Below are positions 7,546-40,253 of a stretch of 46,498 nt of DNA, in pieces (position 1 is the stretch's first letter; every line of letters starts with the position of its first letter). The position numbers were made by a program, and so were the translations under genes. This DNA comes from Anaerolineae bacterium (GTDB lineage: Bacteria > Chloroflexota > Anaerolineae > Epilineales > Epilineaceae), in contig JAJCYU010000105.1 of assembly GCA_029262755.1 (NCBI GenBank), positions 1-46,498 of the forward strand, read 5' to 3'. A model generated the notes under the pieces. That model was not told the origin of the DNA and made no database searches. It saw only the letters and a program-made list of their open reading frames with translations.

Positions 7546-8703
7546 ATGGCGATGATTTGGAAAGAACTTAAGAAGACTGCGGCGACCCAGGTCCTGGAGG
7601 ATCTTTTTCGACGCGCGGAAGACCAGAACAACGGCCTGACCACGGCTGACATTCTCGAGATCTGGCCCCAGGCGGGCGACGATATCGAGACCGTCATCGA
7701 GTTTCTCGAAGAGAAGGGCATCGAGATCGATCACGGGATCAAGCCGCAGGCGAACTATACGCCGGCCAACACGGCCGATTTCGAAGGCATCGATTCCGAC
7801 GACTCGATCAGCCTCTACTTCCGCGAGGTCGGCACCATCGACTTGCTGGACGCGGCGAAGGAGATCGAGCTGGCCAAGCGCATCGAGGCCGGTCGCGAAG
7901 CACAGATGGTCCTCGATGATGAAGAGACCGAGCTCAACCGCAAGACCCGCACACGCCTGACCGGCGTCATGCGCGACGGCGAGCAGGCCAAGCGCGAGCT
8001 CACGCAGGCCAACAGCCGCCTGGTCATCAGCATGGCCAAGCGCTACTTGGGCCAGGGCGTGCCTTTCCTGGACCTGATTCAGGAAGGCAACCTCGGGCTG
8101 ATGCGCGCCGTCGAGAAGTTCGACTGGCGTCGCGGTAACAAGTTCTCGACCTACGCCACCTGGTGGATTCGCCAGTCGCTCACCCGCGGCCTGGCCGACC
8201 AGGGGCGCACGATCCGCGTGCCCGTGCACATGAACGACCGCATCCGTAAGGTCTACGCGGTCGCCCATGCGCTCGAGACGCACCTCGGCCGGCGCCCGAC
8301 GCCGGAAGAGATCGCGCGTGAGCTGGAGATGGAGGTCGAGAAGGTCGAGCTGGCGCTCAAGGCCAGCCGCCGCAGCATCAGCCTCGAGAAGCCCGTCGGC
8401 CATGAAGGCGAGAGCGAGCTCGGTCAGTTCATCGAGGACGAGACGAGCGAGGATCCCCTCGAGAGCGCCTCGCTCGATCTGCTGCGCGGCGATGTCGAGG
8501 ACGTCCTGCAGGGCCTTACCGCCCGCGAGCAGCGTGTCCTAGAGCTACGTTACGGCCTACGCGGCCACCGCGCGTACACCCTCAAAGAGGTCGGCAAGAT
8601 CTTCGGGCTGACGCGCGAGCGGGTCCGCCAGATCGAGAAGGAGGCGCTGCGCAAGCTGCGCCACCCGAACCGCGCCCGCATGCTCAAGGCGTACTTGAAC
8701 TAG
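7546..8703 (+). CDS. rpoD: RNA polymerase sigma-70 factor, RpoD/SigA family
   Basis: Region 1.2 DSISLYFREVG, region 2 DLIQEGNLGLMRAVEKFD..RGNKFSTYATWWIRQ, region 4 TLKEVGKIFGLTRERVRQIE. May be a secondary paralog rather than the primary sigma. Confidence 0.9.
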   Translation: MAMIWKELKKTAATQVLEDLFRRAEDQNNGLTTADILEIWPQAGDDIETVIEFLEEKGIEIDHGIKPQANYTPANTADFEGIDSDDSISLYFREVGTIDLLDAAKEIELAKRIEAGREAQMVLDDEETELNRKTRTRLTGVMRDGEQAKRELTQANSRLVISMAKRYLGQGVPFLDLIQEGNLGLMRAVEKFDWRRGNKFSTYATWWIRQSLTRGLADQGRTIRVPVHMNDRIRKVYAVAHALETHLGRRPTPEEIARELEMEVEKVELALKASRRSISLEKPVGHEGESELGQFIEDETSEDPLESASLDLLRGDVEDVLQGLTAREQRVLELRYGLRGHRAYTLKEVGKIFGLTRERVRQIEKEALRKLRHPNRARMLKAYLN

Positions 8704-12778: not shown

Positions 12779-12805
12779 GGGAACATCGGCCCACCACGCG
12801 CGTAG
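12779..12805 (+). promoter_or_regulatory. ECF-type promoter, copy 1 (GGGAACATC-N14-GTAG)
   Basis: GGAAC-N17-GTAG upstream of lipoprotein 12880. The same motif occurs at 25454, 27630 and 28566. Confidence 0.7.
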
Positions 12806-12879
12806 CTAGCGCGGAGACAACCGCAATTCTGAGAGCCACGACGTCCTTACCGGCTCTCCCCCTCCTAGGAACACGCGAC

Positions 12880-13305
12880 ATGAATCCGCTTCGGATTATC
12901 TTCCTTGCCACGATCTTGCTTGCCTCCCTCGGCCTGACGGCCTGCTCCGGAAGCACCGATGTGGCGGGCTCAGCCTCGGACGCCGAGCAGGCGAGCAAAG
13001 GGGGCGCAGACGGAGAGCTCGTATGGCCGGTGGACAGCGCGAGGGCGATTCTCGACGCGATCGAGAACTTCGAGGACGACTCGATCAACATGGCGATGCT
13101 TGACGAAATCGCTTCGAAGCAGGACCTCAAGGCCGAGGTGGAGGAGCTGGACGGCTTCTTGCAGCGCATCGCGAGCGGAGATCTAGGATCCGGTCGAACG
13201 GGCAGCGAGGCCTTGGTCACCGTCGCGACGGGTATAACGCAGGGCAGGACCGTGCCCACCCCAGACCTGCGGGACGCGCTGCGGGAGATCATCGAGACCA
13301 AGTAG
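12880..13305 (+). CDS. Lipoprotein, short paralog of 25562 and 28804
   Basis: MNPLRIIFLATILLASLGLTAC-SGSTDVAGSA resembles MRTLKLFTMTMLLLASLGLAAC-TNTDVSGTA. One helical domain. Confidence 0.8.
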   Translation: MNPLRIIFLATILLASLGLTACSGSTDVAGSASDAEQASKGGADGELVWPVDSARAILDAIENFEDDSINMAMLDEIASKQDLKAEVEELDGFLQRIASGDLGSGRTGSEALVTVATGITQGRTVPTPDLRDALREIIETK

Positions 13306-24883: not shown

Positions 24884-25480
24884 ATGTCTCGTCCCCAGCC
24901 CTCGCCGCTACCCCTTGTCGCCCTGTTTCGCGGCATCAACGTCGGTGGTCGCAACGTGCTGAAGATGGCGGATCTGCGGGATCTGCTACGCGGCTTGGGG
25001 CTGCACGACGTGCAGACCTACATCCAGAGCGGCAACGTTGTCTTTCGCATGGATGATGCGGACGCCCCTGGTAGTGCAGGCGCCGGCGAGCGCGACCTCG
25101 CGGCCTTACGTGCGCGTATCGAAGACGCCGTGGAGGCGGCGCACGGATTCCGGCCGCGGGTGCTTGTGCTTGGCGGAGAGGAATTGCTCAGCGCCATCGC
25201 CGCCAACCCCTATCCCGAAGCAATGGCGGAACCAAAGACGCTGCACCTCTTCTTCTTGGAACAGGTGGCCTCAGAAGCGGACCTCGACACGTTGAACGAA
25301 CTGCGGCGCGACGGCGAGCGCTTCGCGTTGTTTGAGCGTGTCTTCTATCTCCATGCCCCCGCGGGCATTGGGCGTTCGAAGCTTGCGTCGAAGGTCGAGC
25401 GCGCTCTGGGCGTGGCCGCGACAGCACGCAACGGACGCAGTGTGGCGGCCATCGGGAACATCGTGGCGCCTCCCGAGTAG
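24884..25480 (+). CDS. DUF1697 family protein
   Basis: VALFRGINVGG.N.LKMADLR, VQTYIQSGNVVF, ANPY, ATARN. Confidence 0.9.
   Translation: MSRPQPSPLPLVALFRGINVGGRNVLKMADLRDLLRGLGLHDVQTYIQSGNVVFRMDDADAPGSAGAGERDLAALRARIEDAVEAAHGFRPRVLVLGGEELLSAIAANPYPEAMAEPKTLHLFFLEQVASEADLDTLNELRRDGERFALFERVFYLHAPAGIGRSKLASKVERALGVAATARNGRSVAAIGNIVAPPE
25454..25480 (+). promoter_or_regulatory. ECF-type promoter, copy 2 (inside the 3' end of DUF1697)
   Basis: GGGAACATC-N14-GTAG. The GTAG includes the DUF1697 stop codon. Confidence 0.65.
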
Positions 25481-25561: not shown

Positions 25562-26527
25562 ATGCGCACGTTGAAGCTGTTCACCATGACCATGTTGTTG
25601 CTGGCTTCGTTGGGCCTCGCGGCCTGCACGAACACCGACGTCTCAGGTACGGCCGGCGACACGCCGCCTGAGGTTCCCGGCAAAGAGGTTCCGCCGGACC
25701 CCCAGAATCCGCCCGAGAAGCCCGGCGGCAACGTCGATCCCGGTTCCGGTAACACCGATCCCGGCCAAGAGAAGGGTGGCGCGAACGATCCCGGTAGCGG
25801 TGGCAACGCCGATGCCAGCAAGGAGATCACCCTCGAGAGCTTCCTTGCCCAGCTGAACCCGTCCCAGCGTCTGGACTTCGCCTACATCGAAGAGCACTGC
25901 GGAGCTCCGTGCCTCGAGGCGAGCGAAGCCTTGAACGCCTTCATCCAAGAGCTGTGCGCCACGAGCCCGGACGACTGCACCGCCGAGCTGCAGGCCATGC
26001 TCACCAAGCAGCGCACGACGACGCAGGTCCGCAACGATCAGGGTCTGGTCGGGCTGCCCAACGCGGACACCGTTTCCAAGCTCCTCCAGCAGTCGCAGGG
26101 CGGCGCCCCGGCGGGCGGCGGTGACACCAGTGGCGGCGACGCCGGCACAGGTGGCGGCGACACGGGCGGCCAGGCCGGTGGCGGCGACACCGGTGGCGAC
26201 ACCGGTGGCCAGGCCGGCGGCGGCGACAACAAGGGTGGCGACGAGGGCAAGGCGCTCCCGGCCGCGCCGGTAGCAGCAGCGGCGGCCGTGCAGGCGGTCA
26301 TCGAGAGCATCGGTCTTGACACGCTTAGCTGGAACGAGATCGCGGGTGCGGCCGACAAGGCGGACGTCGCAGCCCTGGCCACGTACTTCCAGCAGATCAC
26401 GGAGGGCGGCCTCGCGCTACCCGGCTGCGACGACTGCGTGGACACGATGAACGACCTGATGGGCGGCAACAACGTGGACGTGGATGACATCCGCAACCTG
26501 TTGATCGCCATCCAGACCATCGGCTGA
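25562..26527 (+). CDS. Two-domain Cys-containing lipoprotein, paralog A
   Basis: GGGAGG RBS, lipobox LAAC, Pro/Gly linker, 4-Cys domain, GGDT linker and CxxC domain. Confidence 0.9.
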   Translation: MRTLKLFTMTMLLLASLGLAACTNTDVSGTAGDTPPEVPGKEVPPDPQNPPEKPGGNVDPGSGNTDPGQEKGGANDPGSGGNADASKEITLESFLAQLNPSQRLDFAYIEEHCGAPCLEASEALNAFIQELCATSPDDCTAELQAMLTKQRTTTQVRNDQGLVGLPNADTVSKLLQQSQGGAPAGGGDTSGGDAGTGGGDTGGQAGGGDTGGDTGGQAGGGDNKGGDEGKALPAAPVAAAAAVQAVIESIGLDTLSWNEIAGAADKADVAALATYFQQITEGGLALPGCDDCVDTMNDLMGGNNVDVDDIRNLLIAIQTIG

Positions 26528-27629: not shown

Positions 27630-27656
27630 GGGAACATCTCCTAGAGGCGGGCGTAC
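27630..27656 (+). promoter_or_regulatory. ECF-type promoter, copy 3
   Basis: GGGAACATC-N14-GTAC upstream of 27772. Confidence 0.65.
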
Positions 27657-27771: not shown

Positions 27772-28539
27772 ATGTCCGAGTCAGGCACACGCGGCGCGTT
27801 CGACCGCTGGCTCCCTGAGCCTTCGGAGGACGGAGGACAGCGCCCATCCGCGCCCGAACGCCTTGCGTCACGTGTCCTGGGCATGCTGCCTGTGGGCACA
27901 CCCGGCTTCTATCACGCCTTGGCCGAGATCGTCATCGACGCCTGGGCGGATCACGACCTGCGCGAGCATCTGCGCCGAGACCCGGCAGCAGCCATCGCAA
28001 AACGCGGGCTCGAGATTCCAGCCAATATCACCTTCGACATCGTCTCACCCTACGAAGCGACGTTGCCGGAAGGCACGCGCGTTGGACTGCCCCTTCCGCC
28101 CGCGAACGATCCCGTCACGACCACCGCGCTAGCACGGGCGGGCCTGGCGGACACGGCATGGGGCTGGTTGTTGAACGCCCCCGTCGAGTCCATGGACGCC
28201 GACGAAGATCCACTCGCAGCCGGATCCGCGTTCGCCGTTGCGGCGGCGCGTGTCCAAGAGAGAGAGCAGGCGCGTGCGCATCAGGATCACGCCGCGCGAT
28301 CTACAAACAAGCACACACCGTGGTTCGACCGTTTCCGTCGCACACCGCGACCGGTCTTCACGCTCGTCGGCGCCTTCGGCGCCGTGGTGCTGCTGATCTG
28401 GTCCGCGAACTCAGGAGGCATTCTCTCTGGAGATTCGACCTCCGGCACCGCCTCGGGCACCCTGTCCTGGACCTGGACCGCCATCTACCTCGCTGCGTTC
28501 GGCGCAGCCTGGTGGTGGATGGCCGGCCGGAAAGGATGA
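27772..28539 (+). CDS. Membrane-anchored protein with NHLP/nitrile-hydratase-alpha-leader-like domain
   Basis: GGAG RBS. LAEIVIDAWADHDLREHLRRDPAAAIAKRGLEIPANITFDIV...LPLPP, then two C-terminal TM helices. Confidence 0.7.
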   Translation: MSESGTRGAFDRWLPEPSEDGGQRPSAPERLASRVLGMLPVGTPGFYHALAEIVIDAWADHDLREHLRRDPAAAIAKRGLEIPANITFDIVSPYEATLPEGTRVGLPLPPANDPVTTTALARAGLADTAWGWLLNAPVESMDADEDPLAAGSAFAVAAARVQEREQARAHQDHAARSTNKHTPWFDRFRRTPRPVFTLVGAFGAVVLLIWSANSGGILSGDSTSGTASGTLSWTWTAIYLAAFGAAWWWMAGRKG

Positions 28540-28565: not shown

Positions 28566-28592
28566 GGGAACATCACAGCAACCCACGAGTAG
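28566..28592 (+). promoter_or_regulatory. ECF-type promoter, copy 4
   Basis: GGGAACATC-N14-GTAG, followed by AAGGACTGTCGC, which resembles AAAGGCTGTCGC after copy 2. Confidence 0.7.
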
Positions 28593-28803: not shown

Positions 28804-29790
28804 ATGCGCGCTCTGAAGCTCTTCACCATGACCATGCTGCTGCTGGCTTCGTTGGGTCTCGCGGCCTGCACCGGCACCGACGTATCAGGCACGGCCGGCG
28901 ACACGCCGCCGGATGTCCCCGGCAAGGAGGTCCCGCCGGATCCCGAGAACCCGCCTGAGAAGCCCGGCGGCAACGTTGATCCCGGCGCCGGCAACACCGA
29001 TCCCGGCAACGAGAAGGAAGGCTCCAACGACCCCGGTAGCGGCAGCAACGCCGATGCCAGCAAGGAAATCACCCTTGAGAGCTTCCTTGCCCAGCTGAAC
29101 CCGTCCCAGCGTCTGGACTTCGCCTACATCGAAGAGCACTGCGGCGCACCGTGCCTCGAGGCGAGCGAAGCCCTCAACGCGTACATTCAAGAGTTGTGCG
29201 CATCGAGCCCGGATGACTGCACCCCCGAGCTGCAGGCGATGCTCACCAAGGAGCGCACGGCGACGCAGGTCCGCAACGACCAGGGTCTGGTCGGTCTACC
29301 GAACGCGGATGCCGTCAGCAAGCTCCTCCAGCAGTCGCAGGGCGGCGCCCCAGCGGGCGGCGGTGACACGAGCGGCGGCACCGGCAGCAGTGGCGGCGAC
29401 ACCGGTGGCGACACCGGCGGCGGCGACACGGGTGGCGGCGACACCGGTGGCGACACGGGTGGCCAGGCCGGCGGCGGCGACACCGGCGGCGACAAGGGCG
29501 GCGATGGCGACAAGACGATGCCCGCGGCTCCGGTGGCAGCAGCGGCAGCAGTGCAGGCCGTGGTCGAGACCCTCGGCCAGCCGAGCCTGACGTGGGAGAT
29601 GATCGCGGCGGCGGCCGACAAGGGCGACGTTGCAGCGCTGTCCGAGTACTTCGCAGCCTTGATCGACATGAACATGAGCGTGCCGGGTTGCGACGAGTGC
29701 GCGACGACGATGACGGCACTGCTCGACGGTGTGCCGGCTTCGGCAGAGAGCATCATGACGCTCCTCACGGCCGTCCAGGCCCAGAAGTAG
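28804..29790 (+). CDS. Two-domain Cys-containing lipoprotein, paralog B
   Basis: GGAGG RBS; colinear with 25562..26527. Alternative in-frame ATG at 28735. Confidence 0.9.
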   Translation: MRALKLFTMTMLLLASLGLAACTGTDVSGTAGDTPPDVPGKEVPPDPENPPEKPGGNVDPGAGNTDPGNEKEGSNDPGSGSNADASKEITLESFLAQLNPSQRLDFAYIEEHCGAPCLEASEALNAYIQELCASSPDDCTPELQAMLTKERTATQVRNDQGLVGLPNADAVSKLLQQSQGGAPAGGGDTSGGTGSSGGDTGGDTGGGDTGGGDTGGDTGGQAGGGDTGGDKGGDGDKTMPAAPVAAAAAVQAVVETLGQPSLTWEMIAAAADKGDVAALSEYFAALIDMNMSVPGCDECATTMTALLDGVPASAESIMTLLTAVQAQK

Positions 29791-30052: not shown

Positions 30053-30898
30053 CTACTCGCCCGCGCCCAAGCGCAACGTCGCCACGACCGGCAGATGATC
30101 GGAAGCGCGCCGGGCGAGAGGGGAATCGTGCACGGCGATATCGGCGATCCGGTGCGCCGGGTGGGCCAGGATACGATCGAGACGTATGAGGGGAATCCGT
30201 GCAGGGAAGCTGCGCGGCGCCGGTTGCGCGCCCAGGGCGCGCTCCAGCCGGCGAACCGCTCGGCCGCGGCCGGTCGGGTCGTTCAGGTCGCCGAGCACGA
30301 CGATCGCATCGACATCGTCTCGTTCCGAGTTGTCCAGCTCCAGCGCGTCCAAGAGACGGTCGGCTTGCTCGATGCGCTCGGAGCCGCTCAGGCCGAGGTG
30401 GGTCGCGAAGACGCGGATCGTGCGGCCGCCCAGGGTAACCCGCGCTTCGAGCGCGCCGCGTGGCTCTGGCTTTCCGATGCGTCCGTGGCAGCCGTCGCGC
30501 AGGGGGTGGTTGATCACGCGGCTCGGTGCTTCGCGCAGCAAGAGCGCGTTGCCGTAGTCGCCCCGGTGATCGCGCATCGCCCCGCCGGGGACGGCCCGAT
30601 AACCCGCGGCCTCTGCGATCCGGAAGAGCTGCCCGTCCATCCGCCCCGGCTGCGTCGAGACTTCTTGCAGTCCAACGACGTCCGCGTCGATCTCGCGCAG
30701 CACGGCCGCGATCCGATCCGGGCGCGCCGCACGCGGCCACCCGGCGCCGACCGCGCCGTGGATGTTGTACGTGGCCACGCGTATCGAGCGCAGCGGATCG
30801 CGCGGGCTCGGCGTATCGCGCGGCGACGAGGGAGCCCCTTGCTTCGGAGCCCCTTGCCTCGTCCCGTCCTGCGGCCCCACCGGTTCCCCTTCCTTCAC
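30053..30898 (-). CDS. Endonuclease/exonuclease/phosphatase (EEP, YbhP-like)
   Basis: ATYNIH, VGLQEV, YGNALL, THL, LGDLN, LDRI, SDHLPV. Start placed at the GTG overlapping the PLD stop (GTGA). Confidence 0.9.
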   Translation of the reverse strand: MKEGEPVGPQDGTRQGAPKQGAPSSPRDTPSPRDPLRSIRVATYNIHGAVGAGWPRAARPDRIAAVLREIDADVVGLQEVSTQPGRMDGQLFRIAEAAGYRAVPGGAMRDHRGDYGNALLLREAPSRVINHPLRDGCHGRIGKPEPRGALEARVTLGGRTIRVFATHLGLSGSERIEQADRLLDALELDNSERDDVDAIVVLGDLNDPTGRGRAVRRLERALGAQPAPRSFPARIPLIRLDRILAHPAHRIADIAVHDSPLARRASDHLPVVATLRLGAGE

Positions 30899-33234
30899 CG
30901 GCTCTTGCGGCGTGCAGCGCCGGTGTCTTGGCTCCACGCCTCGAGACGTTGACGCCCCAGCCACAGCGCGACACCGACGACCACGGCGCCGGCCGCGAGC
31001 AACGCGATGGTGCGTGGGGACGGGTCCAGCCAGGCGCGGGCGGCCCCCTCTCCGGCGACGGCGATGACGATGGGCGAAGGCAACATGACCAGCGTCGTGG
31101 CCAGTATGAAGTCTCGCAACGCGACGTGAGATGCCCCGAAGACCATGTTGCTCAATCCGAAGGGTGCGCCCGGCACGAGGCGTAGTAGCAACGCGCCCCG
31201 AAGACCCGCCTTGCCGGCCCGCTCACTGATGCGAAGCACACGTTCTCCGAAGCGTTCGCGCAAGGTATCACGACCGATCCACGACCCCAGCCCGTAGGAG
31301 ACGAGGGCGCTGACCATCGTGCCCGCGATCGCCCACAGCATGCCTGCGCGTGGACCGAGCACGAGCACCGCGACGACGTGCAGCACGTGCACGGGCAGCA
31401 TGAACTGCGTGCCGACGACGTACAGCGCGAACAACGCGGGACCGGTCCACGGCGTGCTGCGCAGCGTTCGCGCGAGGGACTCCGCATCGAGGAGCTCGCC
31501 GAGCGGCGTCCACCGCCAGGCGGCGCCGAGCGCGAGCAGCCCGACCACCGCGGCCGCGATCAGCCACGTCGGCGCGTGACGGGTCGCGCGCCCGTGCCCG
31601 CCGTCTCCGGCGATGCGTGGCGTGCCGGGTGCGCCGAGCCATTCACCCGGCCTTGGGCGCGCGCCGACGGCGTGGTCGGCGCGGCCGGCGGTCGGTTGCG
31701 GCATCGCGTCGAGCAGCGTCGACAGCCAGCCGGGGAGGCGCGCCTCGATGTCCACCAACGTCGGCCCATCCTTGGCGCGCAACCGATCCACGGTAGCGAT
31801 CAGCGAATCGCCCTCCTCCTCCGCCGCGTCAACCTCCTCCGGCGGAAGGGCCAGATGCTCGCCGAGAACGGCGTGCCGGAAGCGACGAATGGCGGCCCGG
31901 TGCTCCGCGTTGTCTTCGGCGTCGATGGCGAGATCGCACTCGCAGTCGTCGGCCATCGATTTGTGGTTCAGGTTGGCGGAGCCGATACGGAGGAGCCGGT
32001 CATCGACGATCATCAGCTTGGCGTGAACGTTGATCGAGGTGCCCTTTTCTTCCGGAATGCCGGGCGCGTCGGGATAGAGCACGCGCAGCCTGTTGTGACG
32101 ATCGGCCCGGCGCAAGCGGTGGAGGCGCACCGGCAGCATCGTCTCCATCGTCAGGCGCGCGAGGAGCCCCGTCGTGTCGCGCGGCATGATCATGATGAGC
32201 TCCGGCCCGTCCGGCTCACGCAGCCGGTCGCACAACGCCGCGCAGACGGTCGGGTCCGTGAAGTACTGCTGCTCGATGAAGATCGTGTCGCGCGCCCGGG
32301 CGATCATCGCCAGGAAGAGCGCCTCGATCTCGCTCACCTGCTCCTGTTCGCCGTACGCGGGGTCCGTGCGGGCAATGGCGACCTCAACGTCGGTCAGGTC
32401 GGGCGCCAGATTGTCCGGCCACGGATCATGATCGTCCCCCTCAAAGGGTCCGGGCAGATCGGATGCCGTTCTGCCCGCGCCGTCGTCCGTTCCATTGCCG
32501 ACATCCGTTCCGTTGCCGTTGTCCGTGCCCGAGCCCGAACTTCGTTCCGCCTCGAAGCGCTCGGCGCGCCGCCAGCGCTCGCGCGCGAGGTCGCCGAGAG
32601 CGGCGGCGGCGTCCCCGTCGACGAGGATCTGGATGTCGTGATAGGGACGGTACGACGCTTCGTCCGGCTCCTTGCGACGTTTGTCCTCCGGAGCGTGCTC
32701 CGCGGTGTCCCATCGCGCCTGCGTCAGGTCGATGCCGCCGGCGAACGCGATCGCATCGTCGATCACGGCCACTTTCTGATGCGGCGAGGAGACCGCCGGA
32801 TGGCAACCATCCAGGCCGATGTGGATGCGCGGGTGGTCGATGTTCACGGCTGGGATCTGCTCGGGGTTGAGGAGAGCTTCGACCCCCTGCACGCTCTTGG
32901 CGTAGAGCGGCGCCTTGTCCCAGATTAGGATCCGCACCTCGAGCTCCGGCTCCGCCTCGACACGCTCGATGAGCAGTTCTCCCAAGCTGCAGGGAGACAC
33001 CTGATCGTCGGGACGTCCGCGCGTGAGCTGGATGCGTTGATCGAAGTCCCACGCCAGGATGTACACGCTGCGCCGCGCATGGCGCAGGGCCTTGGCGATC
33101 TCGTGGTAGTAGGCGTCGGCGTTGCGCAGCAGGGCCACACGCTGCGCATGGGCGACGCGCCAGCAGGTCTCGCCGGGCCGGAAGAGGGGCTCGCTCGCGC
33201 TGCCGTTTGTTGCTGGGTCTTGAGGCGCGTTCAT
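30895..33234 (-). CDS. Phospholipase D family protein fused to a DedA/SNARE-associated (VTT) membrane domain
   Basis: Two HKD motifs (HQKVAVIDD, HAKLMIVDD..GSANLN). C-terminal TMs with RLVPGAPF. Confidence 0.92.
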   Translation of the reverse strand: MNAPQDPATNGSASEPLFRPGETCWRVAHAQRVALLRNADAYYHEIAKALRHARRSVYILAWDFDQRIQLTRGRPDDQVSPCSLGELLIERVEAEPELEVRILIWDKAPLYAKSVQGVEALLNPEQIPAVNIDHPRIHIGLDGCHPAVSSPHQKVAVIDDAIAFAGGIDLTQARWDTAEHAPEDKRRKEPDEASYRPYHDIQILVDGDAAAALGDLARERWRRAERFEAERSSGSGTDNGNGTDVGNGTDDGAGRTASDLPGPFEGDDHDPWPDNLAPDLTDVEVAIARTDPAYGEQEQVSEIEALFLAMIARARDTIFIEQQYFTDPTVCAALCDRLREPDGPELIMIMPRDTTGLLARLTMETMLPVRLHRLRRADRHNRLRVLYPDAPGIPEEKGTSINVHAKLMIVDDRLLRIGSANLNHKSMADDCECDLAIDAEDNAEHRAAIRRFRHAVLGEHLALPPEEVDAAEEEGDSLIATVDRLRAKDGPTLVDIEARLPGWLSTLLDAMPQPTAGRADHAVGARPRPGEWLGAPGTPRIAGDGGHGRATRHAPTWLIAAAVVGLLALGAAWRWTPLGELLDAESLARTLRSTPWTGPALFALYVVGTQFMLPVHVLHVVAVLVLGPRAGMLWAIAGTMVSALVSYGLGSWIGRDTLRERFGERVLRISERAGKAGLRGALLLRLVPGAPFGLSNMVFGASHVALRDFILATTLVMLPSPIVIAVAGEGAARAWLDPSPRTIALLAAGAVVVGVALWLGRQRLEAWSQDTGAARRKSR

Positions 33235-33381
33235 GTCGGGCTCCCGGTGACGATTGTACGCTCGGTTTGGATCGTACCGCTCGCGTTGTCGAGCCGGAAC
33301 GGTGGGTCGCGGGAATCGCGCACACCTCGGACGGGGCGAGCCCGGAAGTCTAGCGGCGATGCGCAGTGGCGGCAGCCTTCA

Positions 33382-33410
33382 TTGACAGAGGTACCCCGCC
33401 AAGGCACGAT
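33382..33410 (+). promoter_or_regulatory. Putative sigma70 promoter of the prsW-like operon
   Basis: Perfect TTGACA-N17-CACGAT. Confidence 0.5.
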
Positions 33411-34671
33411 GCCACGCGATGTCGGCCTTGCACTGGAGACCCCGCCCCTGACCCTGCTCATCCCAACCTTGGTCTCGATCGGCGTGCCGCTCGGGTTCCT
33501 GTGGTTCGTGCGGCGCATGGACCTGTACGCGTCCGGAAGCTTCCGCACCGTCCTGGTGTGCTTCGGCGCCGGGCTTGCTGCCTTTCCGGCCGCGTACGTG
33601 CTCAACACCCAGGCGCGCGGGCTCATGCTGGCCTCGGGTCTGACGGCGGTGGCCGCAAGCCTCCTGCTGCGCACGACCGTTGCGCCGATTATTGAGGAAG
33701 TGCTGAAGTCTGCGGGCGTCGTCTACTACGCCAACAAGCCGCAGTTCACGTACTTCGTCGACGGCGCCATCTACGGCTTCGCGGCCGGCACCGCCTTCGC
33801 CGTGATCGAGAACGTCAACTACCTGCAGAACGCCCCGGAAGGCCTGGCATTGGGCACCGCGATCAACCGCGCCTTTTCCACGTCGCTTATGCACGGCGGC
33901 GCGAGCGCGTTGGTCGGCGTAGCCATCGGCCGCTTCCGCTTCGAGAAAGGCTGGACACGTGCGTTTGCGCTCGTGGGCGGCTGGGGGGCGGCTATCGCGT
34001 TGCACAGCGCCTTCAACCGGCTGGTCAACAGCGGGCCGATGGACACCATGCGCCTGATCGGCGCCTTTGGGATCGGCTTCGGCGCCGTGGGCCTGACCGC
34101 GTTGTTCATCCTGTGGGGCCTGCGCGTGCAACGTCGCTGGCTCCGGCAGTCGCTCGGCTTGGACGTCGGGGTGACGTCGGGCGAGTCGGAGGTCGTGCAG
34201 AAGCTGGCCGACCTGGATGAGCTGCTACGGCCGATCACCGAGGTCTTCGGGCCGCAGAAGCGCGACGCGGTTGAGCGATTCTTGCGCATCCAGGCTCGCC
34301 TCGGTATCAAACGCAAAGCGCAGCAGCTGACACCCGACGCCAAGCTAGCCGCGGCGCTGGCGGCGGAAGTGGCGGATCTGCGCGAAGAGATGGACCAGCT
34401 GCGTCGCGAGGTCGGCGTCTACTGCATGACGTTCGTGCGCTCGATCCTGCCACCGGAAACCGAAGCACTGTGGGATCCGCTCGCCAAGCGGCTGGCCGAG
34501 GTCGAGGCACGCAGGGAGACAGAGAGCGGGGGCATGAACCTGTGGCAGACTCTCGGCGACCGCGCCGACGCGGCAGGGGACGGTGCAGCAGGGGGCGCTT
34601 TCGCTGACAGCGATGCGGCAGAGGACGATGCGACCGCGGGCGACGCAGCCGCGGGCGATCCATCCACCTAG
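33409..34671 (+). CDS. prsW: PrsW-family glutamic-type intramembrane protease with cytoplasmic helical extension (start 33409-33448)
   Basis: APIIEEVLK, FAVIEN, LMHG and ALHSAFN motifs; about 7 TM. Confidence 0.85.
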   Translation: MPRDVGLALETPPLTLLIPTLVSIGVPLGFLWFVRRMDLYASGSFRTVLVCFGAGLAAFPAAYVLNTQARGLMLASGLTAVAASLLLRTTVAPIIEEVLKSAGVVYYANKPQFTYFVDGAIYGFAAGTAFAVIENVNYLQNAPEGLALGTAINRAFSTSLMHGGASALVGVAIGRFRFEKGWTRAFALVGGWGAAIALHSAFNRLVNSGPMDTMRLIGAFGIGFGAVGLTALFILWGLRVQRRWLRQSLGLDVGVTSGESEVVQKLADLDELLRPITEVFGPQKRDAVERFLRIQARLGIKRKAQQLTPDAKLAAALAAEVADLREEMDQLRREVGVYCMTFVRSILPPETEALWDPLAKRLAEVEARRETESGGMNLWQTLGDRADAAGDGAAGGAFADSDAAEDDATAGDAAAGDPST

Positions 34672-34684
34672 GGGGAGCAGCACG

Positions 34685-35428
34685 ATGACGCAGATCGTAT
34701 CCATCCACTCGTACCGGGGCGGGACGGGCAAGTCCAACACCTGCGCCAACCTGGCCGCGTTGATCGGCCGACGCGGGCTACGGGTCGGCATCGTCGACAC
34801 CGACATCAACTCGCCCGGCATCCACGTCATCTTCGGCATGGACGATTCGTCGATCGACAAGACGCTCAACGATTATCTATGGGGCAACTGCCGTATCGAG
34901 GAAGCCGCTTACCCCATCGATCTGCCGAACACGGAAGGCTCCGTGTTCCTGATCCCCTCCAGCCCCAAGACCAGCGAGATCACCCGCGTCCTGCGCGAAG
35001 GCTACGAGGTCGGTATGCTCATCGACGGCCTGCGCGAGCTCAACGAAGCCCTCGACCTCGACGTGCTGCTGATCGACACCCACCCCGGCCTCAACGACGA
35101 GACGCTGCTCTCGATCACCATCAGCGACGTGCTGATCATCGTGCTGCGTCCGGACCAACAGGACTACCAGGGCACGGGCGTGACGGTCGAGGTCGCGCGC
35201 AAGCTCGACGTACCCGAGCTCTACCTGCTGCTCAACAAAGTGCCCGCCGCCTTCGATGCCGAAGACGTGCGCCAGACCGTGCAGGACACCTACGGCGCAC
35301 AAGTGCCGGCCGTCCTGCCCCACGCCGACGAGATGATGGTGCTCAGCAGCGCCGGCATCTTCGTCGTGGAGTTCCCGAACCACCCTCTCACACGCGAGCT
35401 CGAGGGCCTGGCGGCCCTTCTCGGCTAG
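34685..35428 (+). CDS. MinD/ParA-family ATPase (atypical)
   Basis: HSYRGGTGKS, VDTDINSPG, LIDTHPG, LNKV. GGGGGAG RBS. Confidence 0.9.
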   Translation: MTQIVSIHSYRGGTGKSNTCANLAALIGRRGLRVGIVDTDINSPGIHVIFGMDDSSIDKTLNDYLWGNCRIEEAAYPIDLPNTEGSVFLIPSSPKTSEITRVLREGYEVGMLIDGLRELNEALDLDVLLIDTHPGLNDETLLSITISDVLIIVLRPDQQDYQGTGVTVEVARKLDVPELYLLLNKVPAAFDAEDVRQTVQDTYGAQVPAVLPHADEMMVLSSAGIFVVEFPNHPLTRELEGLAALLG

Positions 35429-35579
35429 CGCGAGCCCCGGTCCCGTCCGGCCGCCCGCGGACGTCGACCCGAGTCCGATCCCCATGCTGCGGACCGCAAC
35501 GAGCTACCCTCAATCTCCAGTCTACGATCCCTGAGCCCGTCCTCGATCCCCTTCCCAGTTCCGTTTCCAGGAGTGACGC

Positions 35580-35792
35580 ATGCGGTGCCACAAATGCGGT
35601 GAGGAGCCGATCGGGGTGTGCAAGTTCTGCGGGCGCGCGGTCTGCCCGGACTGTCATCAACCGATGCCCTTCATCTTGAACCTCTACGTGGGCGAAGACG
35701 CCGTGCCGAAGGCCATCGTCGTCGCCGACACGCTGTGGTGCCGCACCTGCCGGCCGCAGCCGGAGCCGATCCCAATGCCCGAGATCTCCTGA
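35580..35792 (+). CDS. Small Cys-rich zinc-finger protein (B-box-like)
   Basis: AGGAG RBS. CxxC-x7-CxxC-x4-CxxCH...CxxC. Confidence 0.8.
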   Translation: MRCHKCGEEPIGVCKFCGRAVCPDCHQPMPFILNLYVGEDAVPKAIVVADTLWCRTCRPQPEPIPMPEIS

Positions 35793-35813
35793 TCCCGGAG
35801 GAGGAGGAAGGCC

Positions 35814-36266
35814 ATGGCGGGACTATTCGACCGACTTCAGGAAGACCTGGAGCAACGCGACAAGATGGCGGGCATGAGCCCGGCGGACCTGCTCATGCTC
35901 CCCGACGACGAGCGGCGCATCGTCCAGGCCCTCGCCCGGCGCGGCGATCTGAGCCTCGACGAGCTGGTCGCGCACCTCGACAGCGACGTGGACGCCGTGC
36001 GGGCGACGCTGGCCGTTTTGCGCGAAAAGGGCTTCGCGCGCGAGCTGGATATAAAGGGCCGCACGATCTGGCGGACTTACTTTGCCCGCCGTAAGCCAAG
36101 CAGCGCGCTGAACAGCATCTGGGCCAACCTGGCTGAGAAGACGGATGTGAGCGCGGAGGCGGATGCGAGCGGGGATGCGAGCGTCTCCGACGGCGCGGAC
36201 GCGCACCGCGACGAGGGCGGCTCTCGCCCAACGAACGACCCGACCACGGGGGGCAACGATGGCTGA
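35814..36266 (+). CDS. Winged-helix domain protein
   Basis: Strong GGAGGAGG RBS. ERRIVQALARRGDLSLDELVAHL..VRATLAVLREKGF. Confidence 0.8.
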   Translation: MAGLFDRLQEDLEQRDKMAGMSPADLLMLPDDERRIVQALARRGDLSLDELVAHLDSDVDAVRATLAVLREKGFARELDIKGRTIWRTYFARRKPSSALNSIWANLAEKTDVSAEADASGDASVSDGADAHRDEGGSRPTNDPTTGGNDG

Positions 36267-36978
36267 GGCCAAAAACGATGCGGCATTGATCCGCGGCCTG
36301 CTCGATGCGCCCGCCTTGCAAGGGAAGTGGACGGAGGTCGCGGTGCCGCCGGGCGAGTTGCTCTTCGCCCAAGGTGATCCCGGCGACGCGTTCTATGCAG
36401 TGCTCGACGGCGAGCTCGACATCTTTGCCGGCGACGACCTGTTGCTGGAGCGCATCGGCCCCGGCGCGTCGCTCGGCGAGATCGCCCTGCTCGACGGCGG
36501 CGTGCGCGCAGCGAGCGTGCGGGCCCTCACGCCCGCTCGGCTGAAGCGTCTGGACCGCGAGGCCTTTCTCGAGACCCTACCCGACTCGCCCGAGCTGAGC
36601 GGCACGGTGATCTCGATTCTCGAAACCCGCATCCGCCGCATGACCCACTATGTCGACTACCTGACCACCTGGGCCGGTCTCGTGGCCGAAGGGGACTACG
36701 ACTCCGCGCGCGAGGCTATCGTCGCGCAGAGCTCCGACACCGCGGACGCCAACCTCGGCCGCTTCGTGAGCACCTTCACGAACATGGTCTCCGCGGTGCA
36801 GGCGCGCGAAGCCGAACTGCGCAAAGAGCTGCGCCGCCTGCGGATCCAGATCGACCGCAGGGAACAGGCGGTCCAAGTGGCCGAGATCACCGGCGACGAC
36901 TACTTCAAGGACCTGAAATCCCGCTCCCAAGGGCTGCGCTCGCGCATCAAGGACGGCGGGTCAGGCTCCAAAGGCTGA
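36259..36978 (+). CDS. Cyclic-nucleotide-binding domain protein with coiled-coil C-terminus (no Crp HTH)
   Basis: LFAQGDPGDAFYAVLDGEL, GEIALLDGGVRAASVRA. Tail MVSAVQAREAEL..LRIQIDR..QVAEITGDDYFKDL. Confidence 0.88.
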   Translation: MAEAKNDAALIRGLLDAPALQGKWTEVAVPPGELLFAQGDPGDAFYAVLDGELDIFAGDDLLLERIGPGASLGEIALLDGGVRAASVRALTPARLKRLDREAFLETLPDSPELSGTVISILETRIRRMTHYVDYLTTWAGLVAEGDYDSAREAIVAQSSDTADANLGRFVSTFTNMVSAVQAREAELRKELRRLRIQIDRREQAVQVAEITGDDYFKDLKSRSQGLRSRIKDGGSGSKG

Positions 36979-37047
36979 CGCGGATTCGTTGCCTCCCCGA
37001 AATCGTCGTGATAAGGTGCCGCACTCTACATCTGACGAGGTTGCGCT

Positions 37048-37635
37048 ATGCCGACGGCTGATTCCCCACAGCCAAGCGATGCGGAGCTCGTCGCCTCGAT
37101 TCTCGACGGCGAGCGCAACGCCTATGCCCTTTTGCTGGAACGCTACCAGCACAAGGTCTATCGGATTGTGCTGCGCATGTGCGGCAACCCCTACGATGCC
37201 GAGGAGCTGACCCAGGAGGTCTTCTACAAGACCTACTTCGCCCTGGCCACCTTCCGCCCCGAGTTCCGCTTCTCGAGCTGGCTGTACAAGATCGCCTCGA
37301 ACCACACGGTCAGCTTCCTGCGCACGCGCCACCGCACGGTATCCCTGGAGCGCGGCGCGGACGCCGACCCGGACGCCCCGGCGCCCGAGCCCGAAGATAC
37401 GAGCCCGCGCCAACGCCCGGAACCCTCGCTGGAACGCGAAGACCGCAGCGAAGCGCTATGGAGCGCCGTGGCCTCCCTCCCGACCGACTTCCGCGACATC
37501 GTCTTCATGCGCCACGTCGAGGAGCTCTCCTACAAGGAGATCTGCGAAGCGACGGGCCTGAGCATGGGCACGGTCAAGAGCCGCCTCGCACGAGCCCGCA
37601 GCAAGCTCGAGCACAAGCTGGCGGGGTCGCGGTAG
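37048..37635 (+). CDS. ECF RNA polymerase sigma factor (SigW/RpoE-like)
   Basis: DAEELTQEVF, FSSWLYKIASN, LSYKEIC..TGLSMGTVKSRLARAR. Confidence 0.93.
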   Translation: MPTADSPQPSDAELVASILDGERNAYALLLERYQHKVYRIVLRMCGNPYDAEELTQEVFYKTYFALATFRPEFRFSSWLYKIASNHTVSFLRTRHRTVSLERGADADPDAPAPEPEDTSPRQRPEPSLEREDRSEALWSAVASLPTDFRDIVFMRHVEELSYKEICEATGLSMGTVKSRLARARSKLEHKLAGSR

Positions 37636-37822
37636 GGGGGAGGGGCGGGGCAGCAGGGGAAGGTGGGGCGGCGGGTTCACGGTGCAGATCCGCCACGGCT
37701 TCGCTTTGGAGCCGTAGTTCCGCGGTCGGGCTATCGAGGACCGGCGCGTCCGATCGCCTCCCCGCATCGCGCTCCGCCCAAACTGCACGCCGGCATGCCC
37801 GATGGCGACGACCGGTCTACCG

Positions 37823-38968
37823 TCAGTCCACCGCACCACCGCGCCCCGCCGCACCACCGCGCCGTCCCCACCCGCGCAGCCAGGCCTGCACGCGCTCGTA
37901 GCCCGCGAAGCCGCGCTCGTCGCGCCGAAACGCAGCCGTGTGCGCGAGCCGCCGGGTGCCGCTGTGGCGCAGCCCATGCACGGCGTGGAGGAGCTCGTGA
38001 TAGACGACGAAATCGACGATCTCCGCCGGCACTTCGGCCGCGTCGAGCGCGCGGCTGATCACGATCTCGCGACGCGTGAAGTCGTAGTAGCCCAACTTTC
38101 TGCGGCTGGTGCGCTTGCTCCAGCGTAGCCGGGTCTCGGGCGGCGCTCCGCCGAAGTAGCGCTCGGCGACCCGGGCGCGGGCCGCGGCGAGATCGTGATG
38201 CGCACCGCGGGTTAGACGCGCCGCGTGCGCGTTGGCGACGTTCGCGCCATCGTCGTTCGCGCCGGAAGCGCCCGCGGTCGCGCCGTCCATGCCCTCGCTA
38301 CCAACGCCGTCCGTCATGGTGGGCGCCCACAACACCGCTTCCAGCTCCAAGAGCACCGCACGAAACGCGTCGCCGCGCGCCCAGTCGCGGATCGCGGTGC
38401 GCGGCGCGCCGGTCGCGCCGTTCGCGACGGCGATGACCTCGGCCAACACGTCGGGCGGTGCGTCGACGAAGCCCTGGTTGATCGTGATCGCCAACGTGTC
38501 GCCGTCCACGCGCCGCCCGCGCACCAGGGCGGATGTATCGAAGAATACGACGGCCATGTGCGACGCGGGGGCGGAGTCCGCTCGCTTCCCTCGACGCTTG
38601 TTCCGCAGCGCGCGCCGGGACCGCGCGCGCCTGAGGCGCGCGCTCGCACGTCCCGTGCGACCCGCGCTCGATCGCTCGACAACGTCCGCGGCCACGAGGT
38701 CCGCGCGGCGCAGCGCGGCGACGTGCCGCTCCACGTTGCCGGGCGCGTCCAGCCAACGTAGCCAGCCGGCCGCGCGGCGCGCGCGATCGCCGAAGCTGTC
38801 CGCCGAGACGCCGGGGCGGGCGAGGGCGCGATCGATTCGCGCGACCTGCACGGCGAGCAGCTCGTCGAGCGCTGCCGCGTCGCGGCCGTCCGCACGCGCG
38901 CGCAGCAACTCCTGCGCCCGGTCCGTGGCGGTCACGATGCCGGGGAGGGACAGGCGTTGGAGCGTCAT
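37823..38968 (-). CDS. Protein with C-terminal SprT/YgjP-like zinc metallopeptidase domain
   Basis: LRWSKR..RKLGYYD...IVISRALD...FVVYHELLH...HTAAFR. Start inferred at ATG 38968. Confidence 0.75.
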   Translation of the reverse strand: MTLQRLSLPGIVTATDRAQELLRARADGRDAAALDELLAVQVARIDRALARPGVSADSFGDRARRAAGWLRWLDAPGNVERHVAALRRADLVAADVVERSSAGRTGRASARLRRARSRRALRNKRRGKRADSAPASHMAVVFFDTSALVRGRRVDGDTLAITINQGFVDAPPDVLAEVIAVANGATGAPRTAIRDWARGDAFRAVLLELEAVLWAPTMTDGVGSEGMDGATAGASGANDDGANVANAHAARLTRGAHHDLAAARARVAERYFGGAPPETRLRWSKRTSRRKLGYYDFTRREIVISRALDAAEVPAEIVDFVVYHELLHAVHGLRHSGTRRLAHTAAFRRDERGFAGYERVQAWLRGWGRRGGAAGRGGAVD

Positions 38969-39065
38969 GGGCGGCGGGCACTCGTTGCGCACAACGCCCG
39001 CCGTGCCTTCACCGTAACATCCGTCCACCCTACCTGGGACATTCGACAGTCCCCGCCTCTCGACC

Positions 39066-40253
39066 TCACAGCGCGCGCGCCAACACGTCCGCGAGGTCGC
39101 CGTTGCCCGCCACGTCGATGCCGCCCAGGCCGAGGAACTCCGCCATCGTGCGCAGCTCGCCGGCCATGGCGCGGGCGGCGCGATCGCGGTCGACGCCCGG
39201 CTCAACCCAGGCCGCCGGGACGCGCAGCACGCCCGCCTTGCGGTCGGCCTTGAGGTCGACCCTTCCGGCGAGGTGACCGTCCATGAGCATCGGCAGCACG
39301 TAGTAGCCGTATTGGCGCTTGGGGCGCGGCACGTAGATCTCAATGCGATAGTGGAAGCCGAAGACACGCTCAATGCGGTCGCGGCACCATACGAGCGAGT
39401 CGAAGGGCGAGAGGAGGGCGACGGCGTCCACGGCGCGCGGGACCGGTGCCTCCGGATGCCGGGAGGCGATCTCCTTCCAGCCCCGCACCTGGACGCGAGC
39501 GAGCTCTCCTTCGTCCGCGAGCTCCTCGAGCAGAGGCTGCGCACTTCGGAAGCCGATCCGATAGTAGTCGGCCAGGTCGCGTGCCGTGCCGATGCCGTGA
39601 TAGCGCGCCGAGCGCAGCAGGAGCTCGCGCTTGGCATCGTCCGGCTCCGGCGTCGGGGCGGCCAACACGTCGGCCGGCAGGGCGCGTGAAGGCAGGTCGT
39701 AGAGCCGGTGGAAGTTGGCGTCGCGAATCGCGGTGATCCGGCCCGTCGCGAACAGCCACTCCAGGGCGATCTTGCCCTTGCCCCAACCCCACCAATTGCC
39801 GGCGCGCGAGCCGGGGTCGTTCAGATCGCCGACCCGCAGCGGTCCATGCTCCGTGATCTCGTCGAGCACCTCATCGATGAAACCGGGATGCTCGCGCAGC
39901 ATGCTCTCGACGCGCTCCCATGGTCGCATGCCCTCCATCCGCCAGCGCAAGAGCGGTTGGACCTCCACCGGGAGCAGCGAGGCCGCGTGGCCCCAATACT
40001 CGAAGAGTTCATGCCCCTGGTGAGCCCACCGATCGAGCTTGGCCGCGTCGTAGGCGCCGAGGCGCGCGAGGAAGGGCAGATAGTGCGTCCGCGCGACCAC
40101 GTTGACGGAATCGAGCTGGATGATGCCGACCCGCCCCAACACGCGCCGGTAATGCCGCGCGTCCACGCGTCCGGTCGGTCGCGGATCGGCGAAGCCTTGG
40201 GCGCCCAACGCAATCCGGCGCGCAACGTCGGGCGACATGGTGGGAACAGGCAC
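39066..40253 (-). CDS. ycaQ: YcaQ/AlkZ-family (HTH_42) DNA crosslink-repair glycosylase
   Basis: IQLDSVNVVARTH, FEYWGHAAS, LLSPFDSLVW.R.R, YRIEIYVP..KRQYGYY. Confidence 0.9.
   Translation of the reverse strand: MPVPTMSPDVARRIALGAQGFADPRPTGRVDARHYRRVLGRVGIIQLDSVNVVARTHYLPFLARLGAYDAAKLDRWAHQGHELFEYWGHAASLLPVEVQPLLRWRMEGMRPWERVESMLREHPGFIDEVLDEITEHGPLRVGDLNDPGSRAGNWWGWGKGKIALEWLFATGRITAIRDANFHRLYDLPSRALPADVLAAPTPEPDDAKRELLLRSARYHGIGTARDLADYYRIGFRSAQPLLEELADEGELARVQVRGWKEIASRHPEAPVPRAVDAVALLSPFDSLVWCRDRIERVFGFHYRIEIYVPRPKRQYGYYVLPMLMDGHLAGRVDLKADRKAGVLRVPAAWVEPGVDRDRAARAMAGELRTMAEFLGLGGIDVAGNGDLADVLARAL

Follow-up and report, generated by a model that had tools for sequence, protein, structure and literature searches.

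What signalling system, if any, is encoded where the genes of a PrsW-family intramembrane protease, a MinD-like ATPase, a small Zn-ribbon-like protein, a winged helix-turn-helix (wHTH) protein, a cyclic nucleotide monophosphate (cNMP) sensor and an extracytoplasmic function (ECF) sigma factor follow one another? The question is raised by 46,498 nucleotides of DNA from an Anaerolineae bacterium of the Chloroflexota (family Epilineaceae; contig JAJCYU010000105.1, here C105, of assembly GCA_029262755.1), the whole of which we call the window; its G+C content is ~68%, and the assembly comprises 428 contigs and 5.06 Mb at 84% completeness. An initial annotation, made from the sequence alone, had proposed that the six genes carry out cyclic-nucleotide-gated, spatially positioned proteolysis, possibly feeding a sigma factor regulon. 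Judged by comparison with related genomes, the cluster is a conserved signalling system whose arrangement goes beyond chance, and the sequence evidence suggests that its invariant core, an ATPase of the RGGTGKS type together with sensors ending in a common 58-aa tail, is wider than the six-gene cluster.

All six open reading frames lie on the + strand at 33.4-37.6 kb, as annotated, and their start codons were picked to agree with the N-termini of homologues. They encode the protease, here called PrsW-long (33409-34671, with an alternative in-frame start TTG at 33382), the ATPase (34685-35428), a 70-aa Cys-rich Zn-ribbon-like protein or Zn finger (35580-35792), the wHTH protein of 150 aa (35814-36266), the cNMP-binding sensor (36259-36978) with its C-terminal helical tail (36775-36948), and the ECF sigma factor (37048-37635). 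The intergenic gaps of 13, 151, 21, -8 and 69 bp all match those first given. A TTGACA promoter that had been placed ahead of the set is withdrawn: a sigma-70 scan of 33000-38200 calls no promoter on the + strand, the hexamer (33382-33387) begins with the in-frame TTG of the PrsW frame, and its best -10 candidate would overlap the ATG at 33409.

Conservation of the cluster

ATPase orthologues (E<=1e-49) occur in 12 of the 16 genomes of the same family. When 20 loci around ATPase orthologues (L031-L050) were searched with the window proteins, PrsW, ATPase, Zn finger and cNMP sensor were found in the window order in 12 of them, from 10 genomes; the wHTH protein is matched in nine of these 12, with a tenth grouping with it by BLASTP, and an ECF sigma gene is present in 11. 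The sigma factor is the variably linked member that had been foreseen, co-directional in 8/12 loci and convergent in 3/12. The remaining eight loci, from other families, contain the ATPase without PrsW. Twenty further loci were taken from a phylum-wide sample. A sister family (L053, L067) has the order ECF, small protein with two transmembrane helices (2-TM), PrsW, cNMP-tail sensor, second ATPase paralogue, Zn finger and wHTH, with another ATPase paralogue placed divergently, and that the gene set persists in spite of this reordering speaks for a functional link. Conservation as a cluster, on which the initial annotation had staked its proposal, is seen both in the 12 of 20 loci and, reordered, in the sister family.

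The ATPase and its probable partner tail

The ATPase has Pfam matches to AAA_31/ParA/CbiA, and its Walker A motif reads HSYRGGTGKSN in the window and HSxRGGTGKSN across 35 aligned sequences, Arg being nearly invariant at the position of the signature Lys in the MinD/ParA pattern xKGGxGK[ST], so that the MinD signature itself is absent. K16, D38 and D131 are invariant in the same 35 sequences, the P-loop Lys and the DTD and IDTHPG motifs are retained, and the stretch DTDIxSPG, with a PG motif after sensor-1, is conserved. The protein falls below the cut-offs for bacterial MinD (48.7 vs 212.9, TIGR01968), archaeal MinD (86.1 vs 201.75, TIGR01969) and ParA (48.7 vs 180, NF041546; there is no adjacent ParB, which lies on contig C139), as well as for the KGGVGR variant (68 vs 90 bits, NF047398), and it keeps the second Walker A Lys (RGGTGKS). 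Its closest solved relatives are archaeal MinD proteins (1hyq_A, 9.2e-24), FleN following at 3.8e-12 (5j1j_A). More than 8000 database proteins match it at E<=1e-20, many at ~65% identity, and these relatives are named only 'MinD/ParA family protein' (Roseiflexaceae, Herpetosiphon); identity across phyla is 55-66%. As initially annotated, no minC, minE or parB lies within the cluster. The genome carries MinC and MinE on contig C197 and ParB on C139, where these canonical genes adjoin MinD/ParA-like genes of their own, and the window ATPase is thus an extra paralogue.

The sensor matches PF00027 at residues 27-107 and keeps the phosphate-binding motifs GE..A and RAAS. The initial annotation's statement that it has no DNA-binding helix-turn-helix (HTH) is borne out: no family is found after residue 107, the C-terminal HTH_Crp that defines CRP/FNR proteins is missing, and the fold model (predicted local distance difference test, pLDDT, 88.3) has a CRP/PKA-like barrel followed only by a long helix (164-212) and a shorter one (214-233). 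A fold search with this model returned cNMP domains and nothing for the tail.

It is this tail that recurs. Where PrsW is missing from a locus, matches to the cNMP protein are confined to its last 60-110 residues and lie at the C-terminus of differing proteins that adjoin the ATPase; the Pfam modules ahead of the tail there are REC-HAMP, HisKA-REC-HAMP, TM-HAMP, dCache-HAMP, CHASE3-4HB-HAMP-GAF, GAF or cNMP. When 35 tails were aligned (A1; 58 columns, window residues 173-230), they gave the consensus F..M...V.ARE..L..Q...LRIEID......QVAEITETDFF..L...A..LR, with R11, L22, D27 and L47 invariant; the window tail (36775-36945) scores 82.9 bits (E 8e-23) against the profile, which includes the window sequence among its rows. 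In Pfam nothing matches the tail at E<=5, and PDB sequences give no significant match (best E 0.12); in the Atlas it appears in 'hypothetical protein' clusters only, and no paper on it was found in the literature searched. A search of 1.84 billion representatives with the profile matched 2435 cluster representatives at E<=1e-3 and 1544 at E<=1e-10. Among the best 150 matches the tail nearly always forms the extreme C-terminus, behind HAMP, dCache, sCache, 4HB_MCP, REC, HisKA, GAF, PAS, cNMP_binding (P0200, P0201), MASE1, WD40 or Tll0287-like domains, many of the 150 being short fragments without a family.

How closely tail and ATPase keep company was examined in 301 sampled genomes of the phylum, the same set for every part, in which related genomes are not independent and the counts are no statistical test: the ATPase orthologue (E<=1e-50) is found in 36 genomes, the tail (E<=1e-6) in 39, the Zn finger in 45 and the C-terminal domain of PrsW-long in 13. 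The tail is present in 36/36 ATPase-positive genomes, no genome having the ATPase alone, and the three genomes with only the tail comprise a strong match (G126) and two weak, partial ones (G186 and G264). Tail and ATPase lie <=10 kb apart in 31 of the 36 genomes (1.3 kb in the window) and on different contigs in the other five. When one genome per species was scanned with a tail alignment of 9 rows, there were at least 338 confirmed tail matches among the 600 pattern matches listed, and the neighbours of the best 80 of these loci were examined. They come from at least seven phyla and, by their record titles, belong to Chloroflexota, Cyanobacteria, Actinomycetota, Acidobacteriota, Planctomycetota, Binatia, Bipolaricaulia and one metagenome-assembled genome (MAG) of the Sphingomonadaceae. 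An ATPase orthologue (>=45% identity, >=150 bits) is present in 44 of the 80, directly downstream of the tail gene with a gap of <=250 bp in 30 of those 44. The 36 loci without an ATPase are compatible with genomes that have several tail sensors but one or two ATPases, and up to four tail matches per genome were indeed counted in the 301-genome sample. We hold it highly likely that ATPase and tail are functionally coupled, and these distributions suggest that the key partner of the ATPase is the 58-aa tail common to many sensor types rather than the cNMP domain as such.

Orthologues and further paralogues of the ATPase also have other company. At three loci of genomes from the same taxonomic order (L037, L038, L040) an orthologue follows two STAS genes, an isoamylase gene and the gene of a HATPase_c_2-REC-SpoIIE protein (partner-switching parts) and precedes that of a 1190-aa TLC/MFS-HEAT-cNMP protein. 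In genome G036 (L050, L047) extra paralogues adjoin a CHASE3-4HB-HAMP-GAF-tail sensor with an adenylate cyclase, and a cNMP-patatin protein.

A long form of PrsW

The protease matches PF13367 with 90.2 bits (gathering threshold 23.5) over residues 55-220 of the 429-aa reading from 33382, and scores 34.7 bits against a cut-off of 225 for the B. subtilis-type equivalog NF033739. Numbered from 33409, E96, E97, K100, H162, H199 and N203 are invariant in 17/17 sequences; these residues of the EExxK, His and HxxxN motifs are presumably catalytic. The fold model (pLDDT 77.4) has seven long helices up to about residue 248, and the extra helical C-terminus noted at first corresponds in it to residues 269-346, which form a helical domain (pLDDT 78-92) ahead of a disordered end. 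By the positive-inside rule this domain is predicted to be cytoplasmic, since an Arg-rich stretch follows the last membrane helix. A fold search with the whole model gave no match at E<=1e-3; the only notable row was APH-1 of gamma-secretase (5a63_C; probability 0.99, TMt 0.56), which we take to be linked to the PrsW/CAAX group.

The C-terminal extension, searched alone (190 aa), was matched in 13 of the 301 genomes, each time <=7 kb from a tail or ATPase match, so that this helical domain is found only beside the ATPase/tail module (13/13). The link between cNMP and protease made in the initial annotation has a natural counterpart in a relative (G071, L070:14551-16374), where a single 608-aa frame comprises PrsW, the C-terminal helical domain and cNMP_binding (residues 414-499), a fusion that ties cNMP sensing to the protease; a second cNMP protein gene follows it. 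Elsewhere PrsW-long lies 2 kb from a tail protein in G126 (100% complete; C63:51331-54135), and the Sphingomonadaceae MAG, a record named as an alphaproteobacterium (L072), encodes a PrsW-long with 49-56% identity to that of the window together with a tail protein, an occurrence that could be due to gene transfer or to a binning error. Taken together, it is likely that PrsW-long belongs functionally to the module.

The sigma factor and a candidate anti-sigma factor

The sigma factor scores 115.9 bits against TIGR02937 (cut-off 42.9), has regions r2 and r4_2 only (Pfam Sigma70_r2 and r4_2), and remains below the equivalog cut-offs of SigW and RpoE (124 vs 209, PRK09641; 123 vs 236, TIGR02939). 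It is the only ECF-sized sigma factor in the window. A second gene of the sigma-70 family (7546-8703) has a frame of 385 aa with region 2 matched at 81.6 bits and is not ECF-sized, and the genome has 37 sigma region-2 matches. In three loci (L043:2182-5535, L045, L049) the neighbour of the ECF gene encodes a protein of 1118 aa that combines cyclase, NACHT and FGE-sulfatase domains and might supply cyclic nucleotide locally.

The initial annotation had remarked that no anti-sigma factor follows the sigma gene and had called the sigma factor an orphan. The remark is literally true, and nothing suitable was found directly after the sigma gene in other loci of the family, where the next genes are DsbD-like (two loci), a histidine kinase (one) or unknowns (others). 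A candidate anti-sigma factor and PrsW substrate nevertheless lies 8.5 kb upstream, as a 255-aa 2-TM membrane protein (27772-28536, + strand, start codon uncertain). Its family was recognised from two relatives (G005 and G012, loci L032 and L033), in which the gene of a 250-aa membrane protein stands between the cNMP-tail and ECF genes; over 142 residues the window orthologue is 38% identical (E 3e-20). In other loci an orthologue comes directly after the ECF gene (L048), after ECF and a lipoprotein gene (L046), or upstream of a lipoprotein-PrsW pair (L041), so that 2-TM orthologues stand beside an ECF sigma gene or the cluster in five same-family loci. In the family alignment (A5, 6 rows) the cytoplasmic N-domain has a variable N-terminus and then a central, NHLP-like AWxDPxxRExLRRDP stretch, which has a weak nitrile-hydratase-alpha match (E 4e-4, L033). 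TM1 and TM2 follow, joined by a Gly/Ser-rich loop of ~20 residues around an [SA]G[TA]A core, and the end of the protein is basic. In the sister family, the small 2-TM proteins encoded after ECF have the same C-terminal hairpin as the window family (E 6e-5), and a different 155-aa 2-TM protein takes that place in G001.

A complex of the window sigma factor (A6, 12 rows) with residues 1-185 of the window 2-TM protein (A5) was modelled and scores 0.73 (runs 0.77, 0.69 and 0.73), the best of three controls reaching 0.00; the mark of 0.73 is attained by 58/80 solved complexes and 2/110 mismatched pairs, rates that are only rough for custom alignments as small as these. The runs share >=63% of contacts, with a pLDDT of >=75 for the partner. 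Contacts involve sigma residues 18-85 and 133-191, thus both domains, and partner residues 9-48, 98-99 and 132-141, a predicted geometry that would be that of an anti-sigma factor. The model supports, and does not show, binding of the sigma factor by the 2-TM protein. With 2-TM orthologues adjoining ECF genes in relatives and this score, the sigma factor is probably no orphan, and we lean slightly towards the 2-TM protein being its cognate anti-sigma factor.

Promoter-like sites and lipoprotein genes

Sites of the form GGAAC-N15-18-GTA number five in the window (1.68 expected; five are reached in 4/100 shuffles), four of which share GGAACATC. Over the whole genome (5.06 Mb) GGAACATC-N14-GTA occurs at five sites, four of them in this 46-kb window, where all four are on the + strand, and the reversed control pattern occurs twice. 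One of these ECF-type promoter-like sites (27631-27655) lies 141 bp upstream of the 2-TM gene and another (28567-28591) upstream of a lipoprotein gene (28804-29790, + strand, lipobox LGLAAC). The third (25455-25479) precedes a paralogous lipoprotein gene (25562-26527, + strand), the products of the two being 72% identical, and the fourth (12780-12804) a third lipoprotein-like gene starting at ~12880 (feature 12780-13305). No Pfam family matches the lipoproteins of 25562-26527 and 28804-29790, whose sequences include repeat regions of Pro/Glu-rich and GGDTGG type. From the sites before them, the genes at 25562-26527 and ~12880 are probable regulon members.

In relatives, sites of the GGAAC type precede the 2-TM/ECF pair and also PrsW in two loci (L032, L033), and lipoprotein genes in three (L041, L044, L046); lipoprotein orthologues stand directly upstream of PrsW in L041, L044, L046 and L048. 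A site before the anti-sigma/sigma pair is the autoregulated layout usual for ECF sigma factors. The connection to GGAAC-N17-GTA sites drawn in the initial annotation thus gains from their concentration in the window and from their place before the candidate anti-sigma/sigma pair in two relatives, and their assignment to this particular ECF factor is one that we infer, as the genome has the 37 region-2 matches given above.

Zn-ribbon and winged-helix proteins

The 70-aa Zn-ribbon-like protein keeps seven Cys positions, one Cys/His position and a C-terminal PQPEPIxMPE peptide, and has no Pfam, NCBIfam or PDB relative. The wHTH protein has weak Pfam matches to HTH families (E 2e-4 to 5e-3), and its best PDB match is 1sfx_A (E 0.0019, residues 29-103); an N-terminal GLFDRLQ peptide, the winged-helix core and an Arg-rich stretch after the core are kept, and the end is acidic and disordered. 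These two proteins may be adaptors or a second, DNA-directed output.

Flanking genes

Upstream of the cluster, on the - strand, lie a gene for a 779-aa PLD-VTT fusion (30895-33234) and an endonuclease/exonuclease/phosphatase gene (30053-30964), whose end is overlapped by the former. This 3.6-kb pair (30053-33234) looks like an insertion, since it occupies the spot where the lipoprotein gene of relatives directly adjoins PrsW. Downstream, also on the - strand, follow a SprT-like gene (37823-39637; 604-aa frame, SprT-like domain at residues 488-572) and an AlkZ-like gene (39066-40253). The two overlap by ~570 bp, and the true SprT-like start is probably much later.

Proposed relay and alternatives

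The best explanation, to which we give an even chance, is that this lineage has built out a widespread, uncharacterised signalling core, with a proposed relay from cNMP through protease to sigma factor; it appears to have added to the core the Zn-ribbon mini-protein, the winged-helix protein and PrsW-long. A cyclic nucleotide bound by the sensor would change the tail, the tail would determine the ATP-dependent state of the ATPase, and the cytoplasmic domain of the protease would read that state. PrsW-long would then cut the short outer loop of the 2-TM protein (27772-28536), which would hold the ECF sigma factor, and the released sigma factor would transcribe the GGAAC-N17-GTA genes, which encode the lipoproteins and the anti-sigma factor. 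The reading best supported by these comparisons and models is that an anti-sigma factor is proteolysed from the cytoplasmic side under cNMP control; we rate the full cascade as stated as less likely than not. It is rather unlikely that the locus represents a new signalling route in which many sensors with one output tail act on a MinD-type ATP switch that gates a PrsW-type site-1 protease from the cytoplasm and so destroys a two-helix anti-sigma factor.

Several observations weigh against this relay. Among the 16 same-family genomes no ATPase orthologue was found in four (G002, G004, G006 and G016; 65-97% complete), and in the complete genome G126 none is found at E<=1e-10 despite PrsW-long and tail, which counts against an obligatory ATPase. 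In PrsW-long loci of other classes (L055, L108, L111, L116, L140) no ECF gene lies within the fetched flanks, so that the protease there needs another substrate or a distant sigma factor. The 2-TM protein has no Pfam anti-sigma domain such as zf-HC2 at E<=1 in five family members, and the pass of its complex model, made with our own small alignments, may partly reflect likeness to solved complexes, as sigma/anti-sigma pairs are well represented among solved structures. In the window, 3.6 kb with two opposite-strand genes separate the 2-TM and lipoprotein genes from PrsW, and no GGAAC site precedes PrsW or the ECF gene. Finally, the relay gives the Zn-ribbon and wHTH proteins no role, and the Zn-ribbon family is wider than the module (the 45 of 301 genomes above), occurring in one family in 18/18 genomes, far from the ATPase.

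The ATPase may instead act as FleN (FlhG) does on FleQ, with the tail setting its state and the ATPase controlling the wHTH protein, together with the Zn-ribbon protein, as the DNA-binding output, PrsW and the sigma factor being separately signalled neighbours. ATPase, Zn finger and wHTH do stand together without PrsW in five loci (L039, L054, L105, L109, L144), and the conserved GLFDRLQ peptide could dock on the ATPase. Among the best 80 tail loci, however, the Zn finger is found in 8/80 and the wHTH in ~17/80, most ATPase-tail loci having neither, and the HTH matches are weak; nor would this arrangement explain why the C-domain of PrsW-long is confined to the module or why PrsW is fused to cNMP_binding in a relative. 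We consider it unlikely as the main account, and it is not exclusive of the build-out proposed above, with which it is compatible. MinD, ParA and McdA position cargo, and a gradient of the ATPase on membrane or nucleoid could in the same way place PrsW or the sensors at a defined site. The fold group, the archaeal MinD proteins as best solved relatives and the kept catalytic motifs all suit such a role, yet the ATPase is below every MinD and ParA equivalog cut-off with its signature Lys replaced, the genome has separate minCDE and parAB loci, and the partners are classical signal sensors and not cargo adaptors. Nothing found supports the 'spatially positioned' part of the initial proposal, the data fitting an ATP switch as well as a positioning ATPase, and positioning appears to us improbable.

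Two further accounts carry less weight. Li, Burroughs and Aravind predict, in the main text of their October 2026 preprint on ParA in immunity, defence against mobile elements by a mostly archaeal ParA-wHTH system, the ConB2 group having a PG motif and, in place of the second Walker A Lys, an Arg (10.64898/2026.10.19.760177). The window ATPase partly matches the KGGVGR variant (NF047398, 68 bits vs 90), has a PG motif after its DTD sensor-1, as that text states for ConB2, and is accompanied by a wHTH protein with an N-terminal helix. Here, though, Arg replaces the first Walker A Lys and not the second, the 55-66% identity across phyla does not match the fast evolution that defence genes would be expected to show, the ATPase is partnered by Cache, HAMP, REC, GAF and cNMP sensors with no nuclease or toxin effector present, and HAMP, PrsW, receiver and Chloroflexi are absent from the preprint's main text; a defence function is very improbable. 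That unrelated genes lie side by side by chance has a negligible probability: nothing speaks for it except the 151-bp gap and the fact that no promoter is called, and it is refuted by the same set in 12 same-family loci and, reordered, in the sister family.

Comparison with known systems

The proposed cNMP-protease-sigma relay is best placed beside the PrsW-RsiW-SigW regulated proteolysis of B. subtilis (see PMC5358783, PMC3498285). The window shares with it a PrsW-family protease that keeps its motif residues, an ECF sigma factor, a membrane protein, which in the window is modelled against sigma domains 2 and 4, and promoters of ECF type ahead of member genes. Unlike that system, the window has a protease far below the equivalog cut-off and with an extra, predicted cytoplasmic helical domain, and its candidate anti-sigma factor has two helices, an outer loop of ~20 residues and no zf-HC2. 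The three genes are not adjacent in the window, and given their link to a cytoplasmic cNMP sensor and a MinD-like ATPase, the signal would originate inside the cell. With MinD-MinE, ParA-ParB and McdA-McdB the ATPase shares its fold group, its catalytic motifs and a fixed partner gene next door, but it has Arg for the signature Lys and its partner would be the C-terminal tail of a sensor and not a dedicated small protein; the linked minC/minE of such loci are absent here, the genome having its own minCDE and parAB loci.

As in FleN-FleQ, a MinD-like ATPase stands beside a protein of DNA-binding type, and FleN is among the solved relatives (5j1j_A), whereas the window has no sigma-54 activator or flagellar genes and its wHTH protein is small and unrelated to FleQ. 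The ConB2 ParA-wHTH system, in the main text of the preprint (10.64898/2026.10.19.760177), resembles the window in a MinD-side ParA, the PG motif after sensor-1 and a wHTH with an N-terminal helix, and differs in its Walker A substitution, the window being further set apart by high conservation, bacterial and not mostly archaeal hosts, sensor partners and the absence of a defence context. The window sensor has the cNMP fold and phosphate-binding motif of CRP/FNR and PKA-R sensors, but its output is a 58-aa tail instead of an HTH or kinase-binding surface.

In the literature searched, supplements aside, no characterised system of this composition is described, in agreement with the initial annotation. 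Within the text available, a 2024 review of ParA/MinD ATPases (PMC11407121) mentions neither sensors, orphans nor Chloroflexi, and the ECF reclassification paper (PMC7826278) contains no occurrence of PrsW. The window thus combines known kinds, partner-switched MinD/ParA ATPases and PrsW-type anti-sigma proteolysis, on a core undescribed in the literature searched.

Significance

The tail family, with its 2435 representatives, and the paired ATPase are spread over Chloroflexota, Cyanobacteria, Actinomycetota, Acidobacteriota, Planctomycetota and others, and the window gives this core a concrete output that can be tested, made up of a protease, a sigma factor with its candidate anti-sigma factor, and a small promoter set. 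If the relay is true, it would show a route from cyclic nucleotides to ECF sigma factors and would make MinD/ParA-type ATPases signal relays besides positioning devices. It would also be the first case in which proteolysis of an anti-sigma factor is set off by an intracellular second messenger and not by envelope damage.

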